Shown here: piece by piece, positions 11,698 to 59,587 of the stretch | How positions within the stretch are numbered: position 1 is the stretch's first letter | Layout of the letters: each line of letters begins with the position of its first letter | NCBI GenBank assembly: GCA_965224165.1 | Contig: CBDCYM010000011.1 | Coordinates: 1,522,877-1,586,876 of the forward strand | DNA: 64,000 nucleotides | From: Methyloligellaceae bacterium | Lineage (GTDB): Bacteria; Pseudomonadota; Alphaproteobacteria; Rhizobiales; CBDCYM01 | Reading direction: 5' to 3' | Notes under the pieces: generated by a model | Databases searched by the model: none | What the model was told of the DNA's origin: nothing | Seen by the model: only the letters and a program-made list of their open reading frames with translations | Program-made: the position numbers and the translations under genes

Positions 11698-13992
11698 GTG
11701 TCTGAGCCTGCGGAAAAATTACCATTGTCAGCGCGGGCATCAGCCAGCCCTTCCTATTTGGAGGCGCTGAATGAGGAACAGCGGGCGGCTGTTGAAAGCC
11801 TTGATGGCCCTGTTCTTGTGCTGGCAGGCGCGGGTACGGGTAAAACCCGGGTCTTAACTACACGCATTGCTCATATTCTTGCGACACGGAGTGCGCGCCC
11901 ACATCAGATTCTCGCGGTCACTTTTACCAATAAAGCGGCTCGTGAGATGAAGGAGCGCGTTGGCGAACTCGTTGGCGGGGCGGTCGAGGGGATGCCTTGG
12001 CTGGGTACGTTTCATTCCATCGGTGTCAAAATTTTGCGCCGTCACGCGGAGCTTGTCGATCTAAAATCCGGTTTCACCATTCTCGATTCCGATGATCAGA
12101 TCCGCCTTTTGAAACAACTCATTCAAGCGGAAAATATTGACGAAAAGCGTTGGCCCGCACGTCAGCTTGCTACTTATATCGATGGGTGGAAGAATCGTGG
12201 CCTTGTACCTGAAAAGGTTTCAGGTGAAGATGCTTTTGCTTTCGCAAATGGCCGAGGGGCTGAGCTTTATGCGGCTTATCAATGCCGCCTTAAGGACTTG
12301 AACGCGGCAGATTTCGGAGACCTCCTCCTTGAGTGTCTGAGGCTTTTTCAGAACAACCCCGATATTCTCAACGAATATCATGATAGGTTTGCTTATCTTC
12401 TGGTAGATGAATATCAGGACACCAATGTAGCTCAATATCTGTGGTTGCGGTTGCTTGCCCAAGGGTCAAACAATGTTTGTTGTGTGGGGGATGATGACCA
12501 GTCGATCTATGGATGGCGGGGGGCAGAGGTTGATAACATTCTGCGCTTTGAACAGGACTTTGCTGGCGCCAAGGTCATTCGTCTTGAACGCAATTACCGC
12601 TCAACCGGACATATTCTCGGGGCAGCCGCAGGATTAATTGCTCATAATGAGGGGCGGCTTGGCAAGACATTACGCACGGATGGTGAGGAGGGGGAAAAAG
12701 TTGTTGTTCAGGGAGCATGGGATGACGAAGAGGAAGCCCGGCTTATTGGTGACGATATCGAGCAGTTGCAACGCCAAGAGCATCCTCTAAACGAGATTGC
12801 GATTTTAGTGCGCGCAAGCTTTCAGATGCGTGCATTTGAGGACCGCTTTGTCACCCTTGGCCTCGATTACCGGGTAATCGGTGGCCCGCGTTTTTACGAA
12901 CGCCAAGAAATAAAGGATGCCATTGCCTATCTGGATGTGACGCTTAATCCTGCAAATGATCTGAAATTCGAGCGGATTATCAATACACCAAAGCGTGGCC
13001 TTGGTGATGCAACCCTCAAGCTTGTTCACGGCCATGCCCGTTCACGTGGCGTTCCCTTACTGCAGGCTGCACGCGAGTTAGTTGAAACAGAAGAGTTGAG
13101 ACCTAAAGCTCGGAAATCACTTTCAGATGTTATTGCCATATTTGACAGATGGCGTGCGCAAATTGACGCCATGCCACACACGGAACTCGCGGAGATGATT
13201 TTGGATGAGTCCGGTTACACAGCCATGTGGCAAAACGATAAGAGCCCGCAAGCCCAGTCTCGGCTTGAAAACCTGAAAGAGCTTATCCGTTTCATGGGGG
13301 ATTTTGAAGGTTTGGCGGAATTTCTAGAGCATGTTTCTCTCGTAATGGATACTGAAACAGACGAAGCTACGGATAAGGTCAATCTGATGACACTCCATTC
13401 AGCCAAAGGCCTCGAGTTTACGACGGTATTTTTGCCAGGTTGGGAAGAGGGTGTTCTACCTCATCAGCGCCATTTGGATGAAGCCGGACAAGCCGGTTTG
13501 GAAGAGGAGCGGCGCCTAGCTCATGTGGGTTTAACGCGTGCAAAAAAGCGCGCCAAAATCACGTTTACACAGAACCGACGCATTCATGCGCTTTGGCAGT
13601 CAGCTATTCCATCCAGATTTATTGACGAATTACCGGAAGGGCATGTGGAATTGGCTGAGGGGCAAAGTCAATATGGCGGTTACGGCATAAGCCGTTTTGA
13701 TAAACAAAAAGCTGCTTTCTCGGGAGCCTATGACACCCCCGGTTGGCAACGGGCAAAACGTAACCAGCGCGAAAAGGCAGCTCCTCGTAAAGTAAGTCCT
13801 CCTCTCACGATCGAAGGTGAGATTGTCAGCTCTGACACCGCACAGAATTCAGGCTTCTCGATAGGGGAACGCGTTTTTCATATCAAATTCGGCTATGGTC
13901 ATATCGCACAGATTGACGGTGATAAACTTACTGTCGATTTTGAAAAGGCCGGTCGTAAGAAGGTTGTTTCTTCATTTGTCGAGCGGCATTAA
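11698..13992 (+). CDS. uvrD: ATP-dependent DNA helicase of the UvrD/PcrA/Rep family (GTG start)
   Basis: Walker A GAGTGKT, helicase motifs (VDEYQDTN, TLHSAKGLEF), 764 aa. Confidence 0.88.
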   Translation: MSEPAEKLPLSARASASPSYLEALNEEQRAAVESLDGPVLVLAGAGTGKTRVLTTRIAHILATRSARPHQILAVTFTNKAAREMKERVGELVGGAVEGMPWLGTFHSIGVKILRRHAELVDLKSGFTILDSDDQIRLLKQLIQAENIDEKRWPARQLATYIDGWKNRGLVPEKVSGEDAFAFANGRGAELYAAYQCRLKDLNAADFGDLLLECLRLFQNNPDILNEYHDRFAYLLVDEYQDTNVAQYLWLRLLAQGSNNVCCVGDDDQSIYGWRGAEVDNILRFEQDFAGAKVIRLERNYRSTGHILGAAAGLIAHNEGRLGKTLRTDGEEGEKVVVQGAWDDEEEARLIGDDIEQLQRQEHPLNEIAILVRASFQMRAFEDRFVTLGLDYRVIGGPRFYERQEIKDAIAYLDVTLNPANDLKFERIINTPKRGLGDATLKLVHGHARSRGVPLLQAARELVETEELRPKARKSLSDVIAIFDRWRAQIDAMPHTELAEMILDESGYTAMWQNDKSPQAQSRLENLKELIRFMGDFEGLAEFLEHVSLVMDTETDEATDKVNLMTLHSAKGLEFTTVFLPGWEEGVLPHQRHLDEAGQAGLEEERRLAHVGLTRAKKRAKITFTQNRRIHALWQSAIPSRFIDELPEGHVELAEGQSQYGGYGISRFDKQKAAFSGAYDTPGWQRAKRNQREKAAPRKVSPPLTIEGEIVSSDTAQNSGFSIGERVFHIKFGYGHIAQIDGDKLTVDFEKAGRKKVVSSFVERH

Positions 13993-16270: not shown

Positions 16271-17159
16271 GGCCTGCACGTTGTTTAAATTAAGTCTCAT
16301 TCTAGAAAGGGATGAGGCTAGAGCTTGGCAAATTGTTGATTTTCTTGAAGAAGTAATGGTGCCTTCAGCATCGGCCATAAGTCTGTTTGAGCAGGCCGAG
16401 AGAGCAATCCAGGTGGAGGCTTATTTTGAGAAAAAACCTGATCCGATAACATTTAGCGCAGATTTGAAAAATGAGTTGGGTTTTGTTATTTCCCCTTCTC
16501 TTATCCGTGTAGAAGCAGTTAAAGACCGAGGTTGGGTCGCAGAATTTGAACGCACGTTATTTCCTGTTCGCTCGGGACGTTTTCTAATTCATGGTAGTCA
16601 TCACCGTCATTGTGTGCTTGCCCTCAGAACCAAAATCGAAATAGATGCCGCCCAAGCATTTGGTACAGCTCATCATGGTACAACACAGGGCTGTCTTTTG
16701 GCTCTTGATAGGCTCATGCATGCGCATTTTTTCGAAACGATTTTAGATATTGGAACCGGAACAGGAGTGTTGGCCATAGCTGCGGCTAAAGCTCTACCAT
16801 CAGCATCGGTCATAGCGACCGATATTGATTCCATTGCTGTCGCTATCGCCCGTGAAAATTGTAAGAAAAACCAAGTCGCATCAAATGTGACCGTCATCAA
16901 AGCTGCAAACCTTCAACATCAGATGCTTCGTGCTTTGCCTCCCCATGACCTGATAATGGCGAATATTTTGGCTAACCCACTTCGCATGCTTGCCCAGGAC
17001 ATCACTAGGAAGCTCAAACGTGGAGGTTTTGCTATTCTTTCAGGCATGCTGGATGAGCAAGCTCGCTGGGTTTTTTCAGCCTATGGTCAGTTTGGTTTTT
17101 CTATGATGAAACGCATTTCATTAGATGGCTGGACAACACTGATCATAAGAAAGCGATAG
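16248..17159 (+). CDS. prmA: ribosomal protein L11 methyltransferase
   Basis: SAM motif ILDIGTGTGVLAIAAA, PrmA-like N-terminal region, about 300 aa. The start overlaps the upstream ORF by 23 nt. Confidence 0.85.
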   Translation: MNRTEKDKACTLFKLSLILERDEARAWQIVDFLEEVMVPSASAISLFEQAERAIQVEAYFEKKPDPITFSADLKNELGFVISPSLIRVEAVKDRGWVAEFERTLFPVRSGRFLIHGSHHRHCVLALRTKIEIDAAQAFGTAHHGTTQGCLLALDRLMHAHFFETILDIGTGTGVLAIAAAKALPSASVIATDIDSIAVAIARENCKKNQVASNVTVIKAANLQHQMLRALPPHDLIMANILANPLRMLAQDITRKLKRGGFAILSGMLDEQARWVFSAYGQFGFSMMKRISLDGWTTLIIRKR

Positions 17160-17166
17160 GTGACTA

Positions 17167-17279
17167 TCTCTAAATACTCCCTTCGGACCATCCACCATCT
17201 ACCATCCCCCGCCACCCGCCATATTCTGCGATAATTAGGCGGGTGCAGGGGATGGTAGATGGTGGATGGTTTTTAGAGG
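17167..17279. repeat. Long palindromic repeat element, copy 1 (family with copies 2 and 3 at 29171-29257 and 59424-59536)
   Basis: Shares the core gccacccgcc-atattctgcgataattag-gcgggtg with the other two copies. Both arms carry the same extra 'atctacc' segment relative to the other copies. The left arm has a tactcccttcgg segment that the right arm lacks. Confidence 0.85.
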
Positions 17280-17627
17280 TATCGAGGTGCCTACCATCCG
17301 TTAATCGACCTTCGTATAAAGGATTTATAGTCGTCGAAAGTAATGCGTTGTATTTTTGCACCCATTCAAATCATATTTGTATGTTGGTGCTCCGCAAGAA
17401 CTTGTCGCCGTCTTAAAATAAAATTAAACCTCTTCATGTAATTTGATTCAAACTTTACTTGACGACTCCTGGGGGGGGAGACATGGAAAATATGACACCG
17501 GGCGAACATAGCGACTATCCTGAGCATCCACTTGACGGACCTATCCCAACGGATTGAGAACCGGATAGTTCAAAATCAGGCGCTGCTGGGAAGCAGTGAT
17601 TGCAAATTGCAATAATAAAAACGGCTG

Positions 17628-28585: not shown

Positions 28586-29101
28586 CGTGTTTCCTAGCAG
28601 AATTTTTCCAGTTTAATAGGTGGATGTTGATATTTGAAGGTGAAGCTTAGGTGAGTATCACATCTAATGCAATTCAGAGTTGACGCGGAAGGGTTTTTCA
28701 TATCATAATCCAAATATAGATATGAACGGAGGTTTAAGAAAATGACCCCTCCAAAAAGGTTCGAGCTATCCTGAGCGTGCTTTATTACAGCTTTTCCTTA
28801 GGATGGCATAATATTCCATAAGAAAGATCTTTGCGAAAGTTTAACTCCGAACGTATGGTGGGAGAGTATGCTTGTGGTATAGTTCCGAATACATTCAATT
28901 TCCACCTTTTGTTTGGAGTGATGCTTGATAGACCTGATGTGATCAGGTGGGCCATATGAGGCAGTAGTTACAACGTATGCTGTGCTGACATGGGGTTATC
29001 CGGGCGGAGCAACGTAAAGGACCTGCAAAATCGCGAGAGGCCCGACATCACTGAGTTAGGACTGTATCAAACGTAAGGAATTCAGTAAAAGTCAAGGAGG
29101 G

Positions 29102-29138
29102 GGCCTCGTGAACATGGACTCACGAGGCCCTTTTCTTG
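29102..29138 (+). terminator. Rho-independent terminator-like hairpin (ggcctcgtga-N8-tcacgaggcc followed by CTTTTCTT) with no annotated + strand gene upstream
   Basis: 10-bp perfect stem plus a T-rich tract on the + strand only. It is preceded by about 500 bp with no credible ORF. Confidence 0.4.
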
Positions 29139-29170
29139 CAGTATTTTTATACGAGTTGGACATCTTTAAG

Positions 29171-29257
29171 AACCATCCACCACCCCCTGCCACCCGCCAT
29201 ATTCTGCGATAATTAGGCGGGTGGCAGGGGGTGGCCCGAAGGGAGTATTTAGAGATG
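29171..29257. repeat. Long palindromic repeat element, copy 2 (each arm differently truncated)
   Basis: The core ctgccacccgcc-atattctgcgataattag-gcgggtggcag is identical to copy 3. The right arm keeps cccgaagggagtatttagagatgccc. Confidence 0.85.
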
Positions 29258-29340
29258 CCCAGTTGATTTATACCAATCCAACCTACAAGCTTGCCGGAAA
29301 TAATTGACTATCGAGGTTATTTTGTACATTTGATCCTTAT

Positions 29341-29450
29341 TGAGAGTCACTAGATCAATCTGCGTTCAAGTGGATTCACTTGAATGCAGAAAAATTGATC
29401 GATATCAAAGAAGTAGAGCATGTTAAGCGAACTCACTTGAGCGCAACATG
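29341..29450. repeat. Two-hairpin intergenic repeat, copy B (hairpin 1 at 29350-29379, hairpin 2 at 29404-29445)
   Basis: Aligns with 947-1056. Stem differences are compensatory: ccacg/cgtgg against ctgcg/tgcag, and catcc/ggatg against catgtt/aacatg. Confidence 0.7.
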
Positions 29451-29519
29451 CTCTAGAATGTGGGATGATACTCCCCGGTGACAGTATGATGTTGGGCGAA
29501 ATATTGGAGATCATATTTC

Positions 29520-32588: not shown

Positions 32589-32939
32589 CGGTCTATCCTA
32601 AAAACTTTTTATTTCGAGTTGAGCCATCTGGCTCACCTACCAATCACAATCAAAAGTCTTGGAGGACTGGATGGCTACCGATTTCGACGAAAACGGAAGC
32701 AATCCAACTGCATGATATGAAGCAATCCAACTGCATGATATTATGTGACAAAAGGTAGCGGCAGGTACGCGTGCTGTGTGGCGAAATAATGGCCTTAAGC
32801 AAAAAAACTGTTGTATGGATTGATAATATCTATTTTTCTTCATCTAATATCTGATCAAAATAACTCCCACCTGTTAAATGAGCCCAAGAACTTGGGCGGC
32901 AAGGATTTTATATTGATCCCTTGAGTTGAGGTTATTGCA

Positions 32940-33279: not shown

Positions 33280-33351
33280 ATCAGATAGAAGGAATCGAAC
33301 CTTCGTCCCATTGGGGGAAACCCAATTGCTCTACCTCTGAGCTATATCCGA
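33280..33351 (-). tRNA. tRNA-like cloverleaf, 72 nt, with an aberrant anticodon arm (6-bp stem with a 5-nt loop, or loop GUUUCCC reading UUC). Possibly a tRNA pseudogene or tRNA-derived element.
   Basis: Reverse complement is TCGGATATAGCTCAGAGGTAGAGCAATTGGGTTTCCCCCAATGGGACGAAGGTTCGATTCCTTCTATCTGAT. D-arm and T-arm are canonical (TAGCTCAGAGGTAGAGC; GAAGGTTCGATTCCTTC). The acceptor stem has a G3·U70 wobble and no CCA is encoded. The anticodon loop is not a canonical 7-nt loop with a purine at position 37. Confidence 0.4.
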
Positions 33352-33605
33352 GTGGCGGATCGGCACTGGAACACGGCATCCGCAGCGCGGCCCGCGCCGG
33401 AGAGGTCTCAGCGAGCCCCAACCAAAGTGCGACAATCCACCAACAGGTCTAGCTGATAAAGTAGCAAAAGCAAAGCCGCCTCTTGCACAAAAGTCCGTAC
33501 CATGCGACCAAAATAGAGGTTTAGGAGAGAGATTCGCGGATGCAGCGCAGTTGGTACCTTCTACGAAAGTCGTCATTGCGACCGAGCATTTTAGATGTGC
33601 TATCG

Positions 33606-33664
33606 GCTAACGCCTACTTGAGCACTTGATATTTTGTGCTAACGGCCAGCGCCTACTTGAGCAC
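33606..33664. repeat. Direct repeat of gctaacg…cgcctacttgagcac (perfect 15-mer at 33611-33625 and 33650-33664) in the parE upstream region
   Basis: Read directly from the sequence, about 150 bp upstream of the parE start. Confidence 0.5.
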
Positions 33665-52091: not shown

Positions 52092-52751
52092 ATGCCCGCT
52101 AATATACGTGTGCAATCGCTGCAAATAAGAGGGTACGATCCTCTATCCTTTGTCCTTGATGGTGGGACATGTCTTGCTGTGCAGGGACCATCTGGAACAG
52201 GTAAGTCCCTGCTGCTACGCGCTATCGCTGATCTTGACCCAGCCCATGGAAAGATCTTTTTGAATGGCCGAGAGCGATCAGAGGTGACTGGTCCGGAATG
52301 GAGGCGGTGTGTTCGTTACGCTGCGGCGGAGCCGGGCTGGTGGGCGGAGACGGTGCGGGCGCATTTTTCAGAAAATAATAAATCTGTGTTTTCGGAAAAT
52401 AATAAATCTGTGGGTGCTGAGACGGAAAATCTAGATGTTGAAAACATGACTACTGCACTTGGACTTTCCGTTGATTTACTTGATCGGCCGGTTAGCGAAC
52501 TCTCGACCGGAGAGCGTCAGAGATTTGCATTGATCAGAGCCGTTGCGGACTCGCCGCAGGTTTTACTACTTGATGAACCAACGGGTGCGTTGGACAGCAA
52601 GGCGGCGGCCTATGCTGAGACATTGATCAAGAAACAGCTTGAAAGAGGGTGCGCCATTATGCTTGTGACGCATGATCCAGACCAAGCTTTGCGGCTCGCT
52701 AACCGGCGACTTCATCTTGAAAACGGCATCGCGCGCCTGGAGGACATATGA
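52092..52751 (+). CDS. ABC transporter ATP-binding protein (FetA/YbbL-like putative iron exporter) carrying an in-frame 8-aa tandem duplication
   Basis: Walker A GPSGTGKS, ABC signature LSTGERQRF, Walker B LLLDEP. Partnered with a UPF0014-type permease downstream. Confidence 0.75.
   Translation: MPANIRVQSLQIRGYDPLSFVLDGGTCLAVQGPSGTGKSLLLRAIADLDPAHGKIFLNGRERSEVTGPEWRRCVRYAAAEPGWWAETVRAHFSENNKSVFSENNKSVGAETENLDVENMTTALGLSVDLLDRPVSELSTGERQRFALIRAVADSPQVLLLDEPTGALDSKAAAYAETLIKKQLERGCAIMLVTHDPDQALRLANRRLHLENGIARLEDI
52365..52412. repeat. 24-bp tandem duplication (ttttc[a/g]gaaaataataaatctgtg, two copies) inside the ABC ATPase gene, encoding FSENNKSV twice
   Basis: Read directly from the sequence. 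The duplicated segment is AT-rich and out of character with the codon usage of the rest of the gene. Confidence 0.85.
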
Positions 52752-59272: not shown

Positions 59273-59423
59273 TAGTGTGTTAAGATTGCCACGTCAGGTG
59301 TTGCAAGTGCAGAAACCTTGCTAACAGTATTGAAATCTACCACAAAAATTACTCTCTAAAACCAATTTGCCATTGATAATCAATAAGTTAGTGCTATTTG
59401 GCAATTAACAATACGATTGGATA

Positions 59424-59536
59424 CCTCTAAATACTCCCTTCGGGCCATCCACCATCCCCTGCCACCCGCCATATTCTGCGATAATTAGGCGGGTGGCAGG
59501 GGATGGTGGATGGCCCGAAGGGAGTATTTAGAGATG
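59424..59536. repeat. Long palindromic repeat element, copy 3. This is the most complete copy, with perfect 47-bp inverted arms around an 18-nt centre (atattctgcgataattag).
   Basis: The left arm tctctaaatactcccttcgggccatccaccatcccctgccacccgcc equals the reverse complement of the right arm. Confidence 0.9.
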
Positions 59537-59587
59537 CCCGATTAGACAACCCTTTACACCAAACAAGCGTTTGTTTAACATCGCTTT

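Follow-up and report, generated by a model that had tools for sequence, protein, structure and literature searches.

Bacterial MITEs are defined as elements of less than about 200 bp that carry terminal inverted repeats (TIRs) and flanking target duplications, encode no transposase and give a long stem-loop in RNA (PMC3184786, PMC11602168), and this stem-loop is usually very stable (PMC3184786; PMC10969869; PMC11602168). Of 183,232 prokaryotic genomes, 56.5% contain MITEs; the clusters are genus-specific in 98% of cases, and about 90% of the copies lie between genes (PMC11602168), so that a lineage-specific, intergenic family is the picture to be expected. TIMEs, which are Tn3-derived MITEs of 262 bp, combine a 5-bp (5- to 6-bp) target duplication and a non-palindromic core with long (38-bp) inverted repeats that have G-rich outer ends and are homologous to those of the Tn3 family (PMC4133298). 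The intergenic Correia/NEMIS elements of Neisseria are about 100 to 155 bp long, with 26-bp TIRs, a TA target duplication, an IHF site, promoters and length variants that arise by internal indels; their long hairpin transcripts are substrates of RNase III (PMC10969869). The pneumococcal SPRITE, a repeat that is dispersed and about 105 bp long, forms a hairpin that can terminate transcription, and the alphaproteobacterial repeats RIME1/RIME2, CIR, Bru-RS and RPE are intergenic units of about 100 bp that form large palindromes. RIME1 and RIME2 are Rhizobium-specific intergenic mosaic elements. REPs, which are extragenic palindromes like the related BIMEs and often lie at the 3' ends of genes, are 20 to 40 nt long and imperfect, have a GTAG head, make no target duplication and are tied to a RAYT gene.

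Here we describe a family of palindromic repeats in a 64-kb stretch of alphaproteobacterial DNA, which was analysed as a whole and is referred to below as the window. The window is ordinary chromosomal DNA and carries dnaE, a gyrB/parE-type topoisomerase gene, the genes of the pyruvate dehydrogenase complex, lipA, queC/D/E, an RpoH-like sigma factor gene, uvrD and prmA. Its host is nearest to the Hyphomicrobiales and is phylogenetically isolated: DnaE shares no more than 66% identity with any other sequence in the collections (MAGs and Hyphomicrobiales-type genomes), and the next-best homologue of PrmA (annotated at 292 aa) after the protein itself is 48% identical. The GC content of the window is 0.47, compared with 0.56 to 0.66 in the nearest Hyphomicrobiales-type relatives.

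A 34-nt core, CCACCCGCCATATTCTGCGATAATTAGGCGGGTG, was found exactly three times in the window, each time on the + strand (at 17212, 29190 and 59462), while 100 dinucleotide-preserving shuffles gave 0 matches, even at 3 mismatches. This bore out the proposal of an initial annotation that three intergenic loci have a common core, which is exact at all three with 0 expected by chance. A repeat search of the window recovered the family as direct repeats and inverted arms, and neither module searches with mismatches nor blastn-short detected an additional copy, even a degenerate one, in the window. The loci had been placed correctly by the initial annotation, but the elements reach 5 to 6 nt further out on each side. 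With these bounds, the three copies and their loops are as follows.

17163 to 17284, 122 bp: candidate MITE copy 1; left arm long, right arm short; three heptads in each arm; two defects in the core stem
17221 to 17237, + strand, 17 nt: loop ATATTCTGCGATAATTA of copy 1
29159 to 29260, 102 bp: candidate MITE copy 2; left arm short with two heptads, right arm long with one; CCAC variant in both arms
29199 to 29215, + strand, 17 nt: loop of copy 2
59419 to 59538, 120 bp: candidate MITE copy 3, the most intact; both arms long; GG at each outer terminus; 46-bp perfect arms
59471 to 59487, + strand, 17 nt: loop of copy 3, again ATATTCTGCGATAATTA

Copy 3 forms a perfect hairpin, as the initial annotation had described; its arms (59425 to 59470 and 59488 to 59533, around the 17-nt loop) measure 46 bp rather than the 47 bp given there. 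The predicted minimum free energies (MFE) of the RNA were -76, -53 and -111 kcal/mol for copies 1, 2 and 3, with z scores against shuffled sequences of -10.1, -6.6 and -16.9, respectively. RNA folding, which had been put forward as a check, therefore gave structures far more stable than shuffles (z of -6.6 to -17). The opposite strand folded equally well for all copies, as is expected of a DNA palindrome.

To describe the anatomy of the repeats, we compared all six arms in an alignment that runs from the outer end inwards to the loop. Each arm begins with a variable stretch of 5 to 6 nt (GGCAT, GGGCAT, GGATAC, CGATAC, ACTAT or GACAT), followed by a conserved CT(C/T)TAA(A/G); CTCTAAA and TTTAGAG serve as anchors at the two ends of all copies. 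The next position is held either by a 13-nt module, TACTCCCTTCGG(G/A), which contains a CCC-TTC-GGG mini-hairpin of its own and may also be written TACTCCCTTCGGG (long arm), or by AA in its place (short arm). This is followed by one to three heptads (CCATCCA, CCATCTA or CCA(T/C)CCC type), and the inner stem CTGCCACCCGCC leads into the 17-nt loop; the inner hairpin arm that abuts the loop reads ATCCNCCATCCCCTGCCAYCYGCC, with its complement on the other side. The consensus of the termini is GG(G)CAT/GGATAC-CTCTAAAT..., the 19-nt element end being CTCTAAATACTCCCTTCGG; a partner IS or transposon would be expected to have ends that start with GG(G)CATCTCTAAATAC... or GGATACCTCTAAAT... The TIRs of about 40 to 58 nt (about 50) per arm make up nearly the whole element. 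The asymmetric loop and the two kinds of terminus show different relative orientations among the copies.

Both outer ends are present in every copy, and copies 1 and 2 are therefore internal indel variants and not truncations. On this point the initial annotation, which regarded them as different truncations of the palindrome, was mistaken: the CTCTAAA and TTTAGAG ends are intact, and length is set by internal indels. The same short arm recurs in two independent copies and is thus a variant of the family rather than random decay. Changes were also mirrored within copies: copy 1 has an extra CCATCTA heptad in both arms, copy 2 has CCAC for CCAT (T>C) in both arms, and the two arms of copy 3 are identical. 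Pair counts from RNAalifold for the three copies were left out, since the indels shift the arms out of register.

We then searched the 14 nt outside each CTCTAAA or TTTAGAG anchor for direct repeats. Each of the three copies had exactly one direct repeat of at least 4 nt, in every case a 5-mer located 5 to 6 nt outside the anchors on both sides, which we interpret as a putative target-site duplication.

17158 to 17162: putative left target-site duplication of copy 1, AGGTG; the final 2 nt of the prmA stop codon TAG fall within it
17285 to 17289: putative right target-site duplication of copy 1, AGGTG
29154 to 29158: putative left target-site duplication of copy 2, AGTTG
29261 to 29265: putative right target-site duplication of copy 2, AGTTG
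59414 to 59418: putative left target-site duplication of copy 3, CGATT
59539 to 59543: putative right target-site duplication of copy 3, CGATT

Based on 200,000 random pairs of window positions, the chance of such a repeat at those offsets is P = 0.0146 per site and about 3e-6 for three of three; under a lax criterion, a repeat of at least 5 nt anywhere in the flanks, it is P = 0.094 per site and 8e-4 for all three. The 5-mers differ between the copies and thus belong to the target and not to the element. Identity between the copies ends at the duplications, the 40-nt flanks being 17 to 45% identical, which is approximately random. As the outer nucleotides vary, the exact ends are placed to within about 1 nt, and the duplication could be of 4 bp rather than 5 bp.

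Each of the three elements lies between genes, in a window with a coding share of about 86% (p of about 0.003). Copy 1 starts 4 nt after the stop codon of prmA (TAG, 17157 to 17159), and the next gene is a convergent acyl-CoA ligase gene; since the duplication overlaps the TAG, the PrmA protein is unchanged. Copy 2 lies 20 nt after a canonical intrinsic terminator (29098 to 29138); a DUF4846 gene (PF16138, E = 2e-96) whose product has a signal-like N terminus follows 260 nt downstream of the element. Copy 3 has a 175-aa membrane-like ORF on one side and, 50 nt downstream, a TetR gene on the other; the genes for the small and large subunits of an acyl-CoA mutase come after the TetR gene. The three positions had been correctly assigned from the outset as after the prmA stop, upstream of a secreted hypothetical protein and upstream of the TetR-mutase operon (4, 260 and 50 nt). 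Copy 3 ends 14 nt upstream of a promoter-like TTTACA-17-TAACAT (59553 to 59581). Overlapping this site, 12 nt before the TetR start codon, is an inverted repeat of 6 bp whose halves are spaced by 4 bp, AAACAA-GCGT-TTGTTT (59561 to 59576). This inverted repeat may be an autoregulatory TetR operator for the operon of TetR and the split acyl-CoA mutase genes. Both the promoter-like site and the putative operator lie beyond copy 3, so the native TetR control region looks intact.

The region adjoining copy 2 has a further feature of its own. A promoter-like TTGACG-18-CATAAT (28680 to 28709, + strand) is followed, about 400 nt on, by the strong intrinsic terminator at 29098 to 29138, which has a 19-bp stem and a T-run. 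The interval 28680 to 29140 contained no convincing ORF (at most 42 aa on the + strand) and gave no Rfam match, and it may hold an unannotated sRNA or small-protein gene.

Taken together, these results lead us to propose, with a probability of roughly three in four, that the repeats are a family of bacterial MITEs, that is, non-autonomous DNA transposons of 102 to 122 bp with TIRs of about 50 bp and a 5-bp target duplication. In size and coding content, the copies (102 to 122 bp, open frames of at most 37 aa) are those of elements without a transposase. Their TIRs, for which 10 to 15 bp is the usual minimum, are present at both ends of all three copies and reach 46 perfect bp in copy 3; the duplications, within the usual range of 2 to 10 bp, differ between the copies (AGGTG, AGTTG and CGATT); and within the 64-kb window, three intergenic copies are dispersed over 42 kb. 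The window lacks any transposase, integrase or RAYT gene, and hence the copies are non-autonomous. Likewise, an autonomous element with matching TIRs was found neither in the window nor in PLSDB or the phage records. The family is new, in that it was found in no other sequence searched, but it is of an ordinary bacterial MITE kind. Of the initial description as a genome-specific MITE or RIME-like hairpin family, the MITE-like part is upheld by the differing 5-bp duplications in three of three copies, the random flanks beyond them and the absence of a coding sequence or a known RNA family, while the RIME-like part is not supported, as PLSDB showed no similarity.

Under this proposal, a transposase encoded elsewhere in the genome, which we infer as the partner, would bind the termini, make cuts in the target that are staggered by 5 bp and join the element to it, and repair of the gaps would leave the element between two copies of the 5-bp target. 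The sites before insertion, with one 5-mer each, would have read ...GCGATAGGTGCCTACC..., ...TACGAGTTGATTTATACC... and ...CAATACGATTAGACAACC... Insertions would have persisted where they were harmless: copy 1 behind the prmA stop, copy 2 behind an intrinsic terminator, and copy 3 on the upstream side of the putative -35 box of the TetR promoter, at a distance of 14 nt. Later divergence would have come from slippage of the CCATCCA-type heptads, gain or loss of the 13-nt mini-hairpin module and point changes, several of which are mirrored in both arms of one copy, so that the hairpin stays intact. Quasi-palindrome correction by template switch is known from E. coli, and the mirrored changes fit either such templated correction from arm to arm or descent from symmetric master copies. 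It has also to be considered that the arms do not evolve independently and that the element is actively kept as a perfect hairpin, rather than being a passively decaying MITE, through intrastrand templated correction or through a transposition intermediate, single-stranded or folded as a hairpin, that has "flip/flop" isomers of the loop, the inner stem perhaps being a functional module that also occurs in the metagenomic hairpin array described below; we hold this reading to be unlikely.

Compared with described families, the repeats share with MITEs such as Nezha, Chunjie, MITEAba12 and the QMITEs a length of about 100 to 120 bp, the presence of TIRs, differing target duplications, the lack of a transposase, an intergenic position, a stable RNA fold and lineage specificity. 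They differ from other MITEs in their unusually long TIRs (about 50 nt) and in being essentially a single hairpin closed by a 17-nt loop, without a separate core, and their sequence is unrelated to that of any family searched. They resemble Correia elements in length, intergenic location, hairpin structure and variation by internal indels, but have a 5-bp non-TA duplication, no promoter-like site and no sequence similarity. The size of the duplication, the long inverted repeats and the G-rich outer ends recall TIMEs; TIMEs, however, are longer and have a non-palindromic core, and the element had no match in 72,556 plasmids, among which Tn3-family transposons are expected to be common. The inverted repeats of the Tn3 family carry an inner TAAG motif that is absent here. 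A 5-bp target duplication is made by several IS families besides the Tn3-derived TIMEs.

The likeness to REPs and BIMEs lies in the extragenic, palindromic nature of the repeats and, in part, their position at 3' gene ends, whereas the arms of 40 to 58 nt, the target duplications and the absence of a conserved GTAG and of a RAYT gene in the window set them apart. They share with RIMEs and the other alphaproteobacterial repeats the host group, the intergenic units of about 100 bp and the large palindrome, but in an indirect comparison, there was no similarity in the 80 dnaE loci described below or in PLSDB, which presumably includes the Sinorhizobium megaplasmids where RIMEs are annotated. Copy 1, with its stem and U-run after a stop codon, resembles SPRITE; in this family, however, the U-run forms part of the TIR, and in the full-length copy 3 it is paired, so that the terminator-like shape is an accident of one variant. 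Several other classes were considered and rejected. The repeats lack the R''/R' GTTRRRY ends of integron attC sites, and there are no spacers as in a CRISPR array; the target duplications speak against IS200/IS605 or RAYT ends, and the three distinct contexts with unique flanks speak against an assembly artefact.

We next asked whether the repeats have coding potential or relatives in sequence collections. The longest open frame through an element is 37 aa, in agreement with the earlier remark that no annotated coding sequence explains the repeats. At the Rfam gathering threshold, the whole window yielded only two tRNAs, and none of the elements reached it; with permissive E-values, the elements matched only eukaryotic miRNA-precursor models, below threshold, and such matches mean no more than "generic long hairpin." The core is thus not part of a known conserved RNA gene; had it been, this would, by the initial annotation, have argued against a mobile family. 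BLAST searches with copy 3 returned only short chance matches (19 to 23 nt in all), including two of 23 nt in PLSDB (72,556 plasmids; blastn, word size 11, E up to 10), and the 50,697 phage records gave nothing longer. The element modules were absent from 80 alphaproteobacterial dnaE loci (1.6 Mb in all), and the dnaE loci of relatives showed no synteny with the TetR/mutase side. The 23-nt loop core, GCCATATTCTGCGATAATTAGGC, had 0 matches in the GTDB representative genomes and 0 in IMG/VR, where the TIR pattern and the inner-stem pattern had 0 matches each as well. If the GTDB representatives include the host genome with just this window masked, the family would consist of these three loci and be unusually small. 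A literature search with the element sequence strings found no paper.

Two metagenomic sequences were recovered in these searches. One exact match to the 23-nt loop core was found in the JGI metagenomes (contig Ga0163110_10187787, 427 to 449); it lies in an AT-rich, apparently coding region without flanking stems, and we judged it to be a chance match and not a relative. Concatenated six-frame peptides of the elements had no homologue among 5.8 billion proteins save one repeat-derived ORF, P0121, which itself had no other homologue in the same set. P0121 is a 244-aa ORF annotated over an array of at least 7 tandem hairpin units of about 90 bp (positions 76 to 810) on a 3.3-kb contig with a GC content of 0.61 (JGI 3300028398, Ga0256833_1025931), upstream of Sulf_transp, DsrE-like and TusA genes. 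The arm sequence of these units is ATCCTCCATCCCCTGCCATCTGCC.

An alternative to transposition is that the repeats are structural units of the REP/BIME, RIME or duplicated-terminator kind, spread by a RAYT-type enzyme, recombination or gene conversion. Such units would be palindromic and intergenic with a GC-rich stem, as found here, and two of the three copies coincide with or closely follow the end of a transcript, the stem of copy 1 leads into a U-run, and no transposase is nearby. The 5-mers would then be coincidental, yet they form direct repeats at consistent offsets in three of three copies (P of about 3e-6), and copy 3, which has no free U-tract, lies upstream of a promoter and not at a gene end. 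Given also the lack of a conserved GTAG, of a RAYT gene in the window and of similarity in PLSDB, we consider this explanation unlikely. The stem might instead be under selection as RNA, the repeats being a family of sRNA genes or of cis-acting stabilizers, terminators or RNase III elements for which mobility is irrelevant or long past. Extremely stable folds, the complete conservation of the loop and inner stem (34 nt, 100%) and the mirrored changes in the arms (the heptad of copy 1, the T>C of copy 2) would all be in keeping with this, and MITE-derived sRNAs and RNase III processing are documented elsewhere (PMC10969869). The folds are equally stable on both strands, though, as DNA palindromes give, the elements match no Rfam family and have no promoter-like site in or directly upstream of them, and their orientation and position are inconsistent (3' of a gene, after a terminator and 5' of an operon). 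A function in RNA would also leave the target duplications unexplained and is more plausible as a possible by-product of a MITE; as the primary explanation, we give it a low probability.

A third explanation concerns the inner hairpin alone, which could be an older and more widespread REP-like module embedded between transposon ends, with the tandem array of P0121 as its kin. The arm of the array units is identical to the inner arm at 21 of 24 positions and abuts a loop of 15 to 16 nt in the same way. This match was, however, found post hoc in a database-wide search, of a size at which chance alone should yield many 24-mers with three mismatches; neither the loops nor the outer parts are related, P0121 stands without another homologue, and the scan of IMG/VR for the inner stem was empty. 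We regard this explanation as very improbable.

The repeats may affect the transcripts in which they lie: transcribed copies would form very stable RNA hairpins and, as a side effect, could stop or destabilize read-through transcripts. The terminator scanner that was used takes loops of 3 to 8 nt and cannot score loops of 17 nt; the elements were inspected by eye. In copy 1, a stem of about 33 bp ends at 17270 and is followed by TTTT just after the prmA stop, making copy 1 a plausible terminator of prmA. A free U-run was seen in copy 1 only. Copy 2 shows a stem and U-run weakly, on the - strand, where there is no gene to terminate, and in copy 3 the T-run is base-paired, leaving no free U-tract, so that a terminator shape is not a property of the family. 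The promoter scan found no promoter-like site within the elements or directly upstream of them. The transcribed hairpins might be strong enough to stall or end transcription and, by analogy with Correia elements, might serve as RNase III substrates. Transcripts of the prmA 3' end and of the 5' regions of DUF4846 and TetR/mutase may thus feel a hairpin of -50 to -110 kcal/mol. Beyond annotation, the finding matters little: it adds a probable MITE family of fold-back type in an isolated, low-GC alphaproteobacterium. If the family is abundant genome-wide, it could be a marker for strain typing and a pointer to an active transposase, and the mirrored arm changes are a small natural data set on how long quasi-palindromes stay symmetric.

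The window also contains other repeats. A second, unrelated family of about 108 nt is represented by two copies that are 81% identical (935 to 1041 and 29350 to 29458, + strand) and by a partial match at 13322 to 13341. Its members are bounded by CTAG...CTAG and form two hairpins with compensatory changes (CCCACG/CGTGG versus TCTGCG/TGCAGA, and GCATCC/GGATGC versus GCATGTT/AACATGC), with MFE values of -44 and -47 kcal/mol (z = -8.7 and -7.7). One of the copies precedes a Na+/H+ exchanger gene by about 170 nt, and the other precedes the DUF4846 gene by about 60 nt. The family has no Rfam match; it might represent a structured RNA, either cis-regulatory or an sRNA, or a further small mobile repeat. 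Three shorter repeats, tandem or nearly so, were noted as well: a perfect 23-nt sequence present twice (32696 to 32741) just upstream of an SPFH/Band-7 gene, an AT-rich 24-nt sequence present twice (52365 to 52412) within an ABC-ATPase ORF (52092 to 52751), and a pair of 30-nt repeats, 39 nt apart (33596 to 33664), between a tRNA (33280 to 33351) and the gyrB/parE-type gene.
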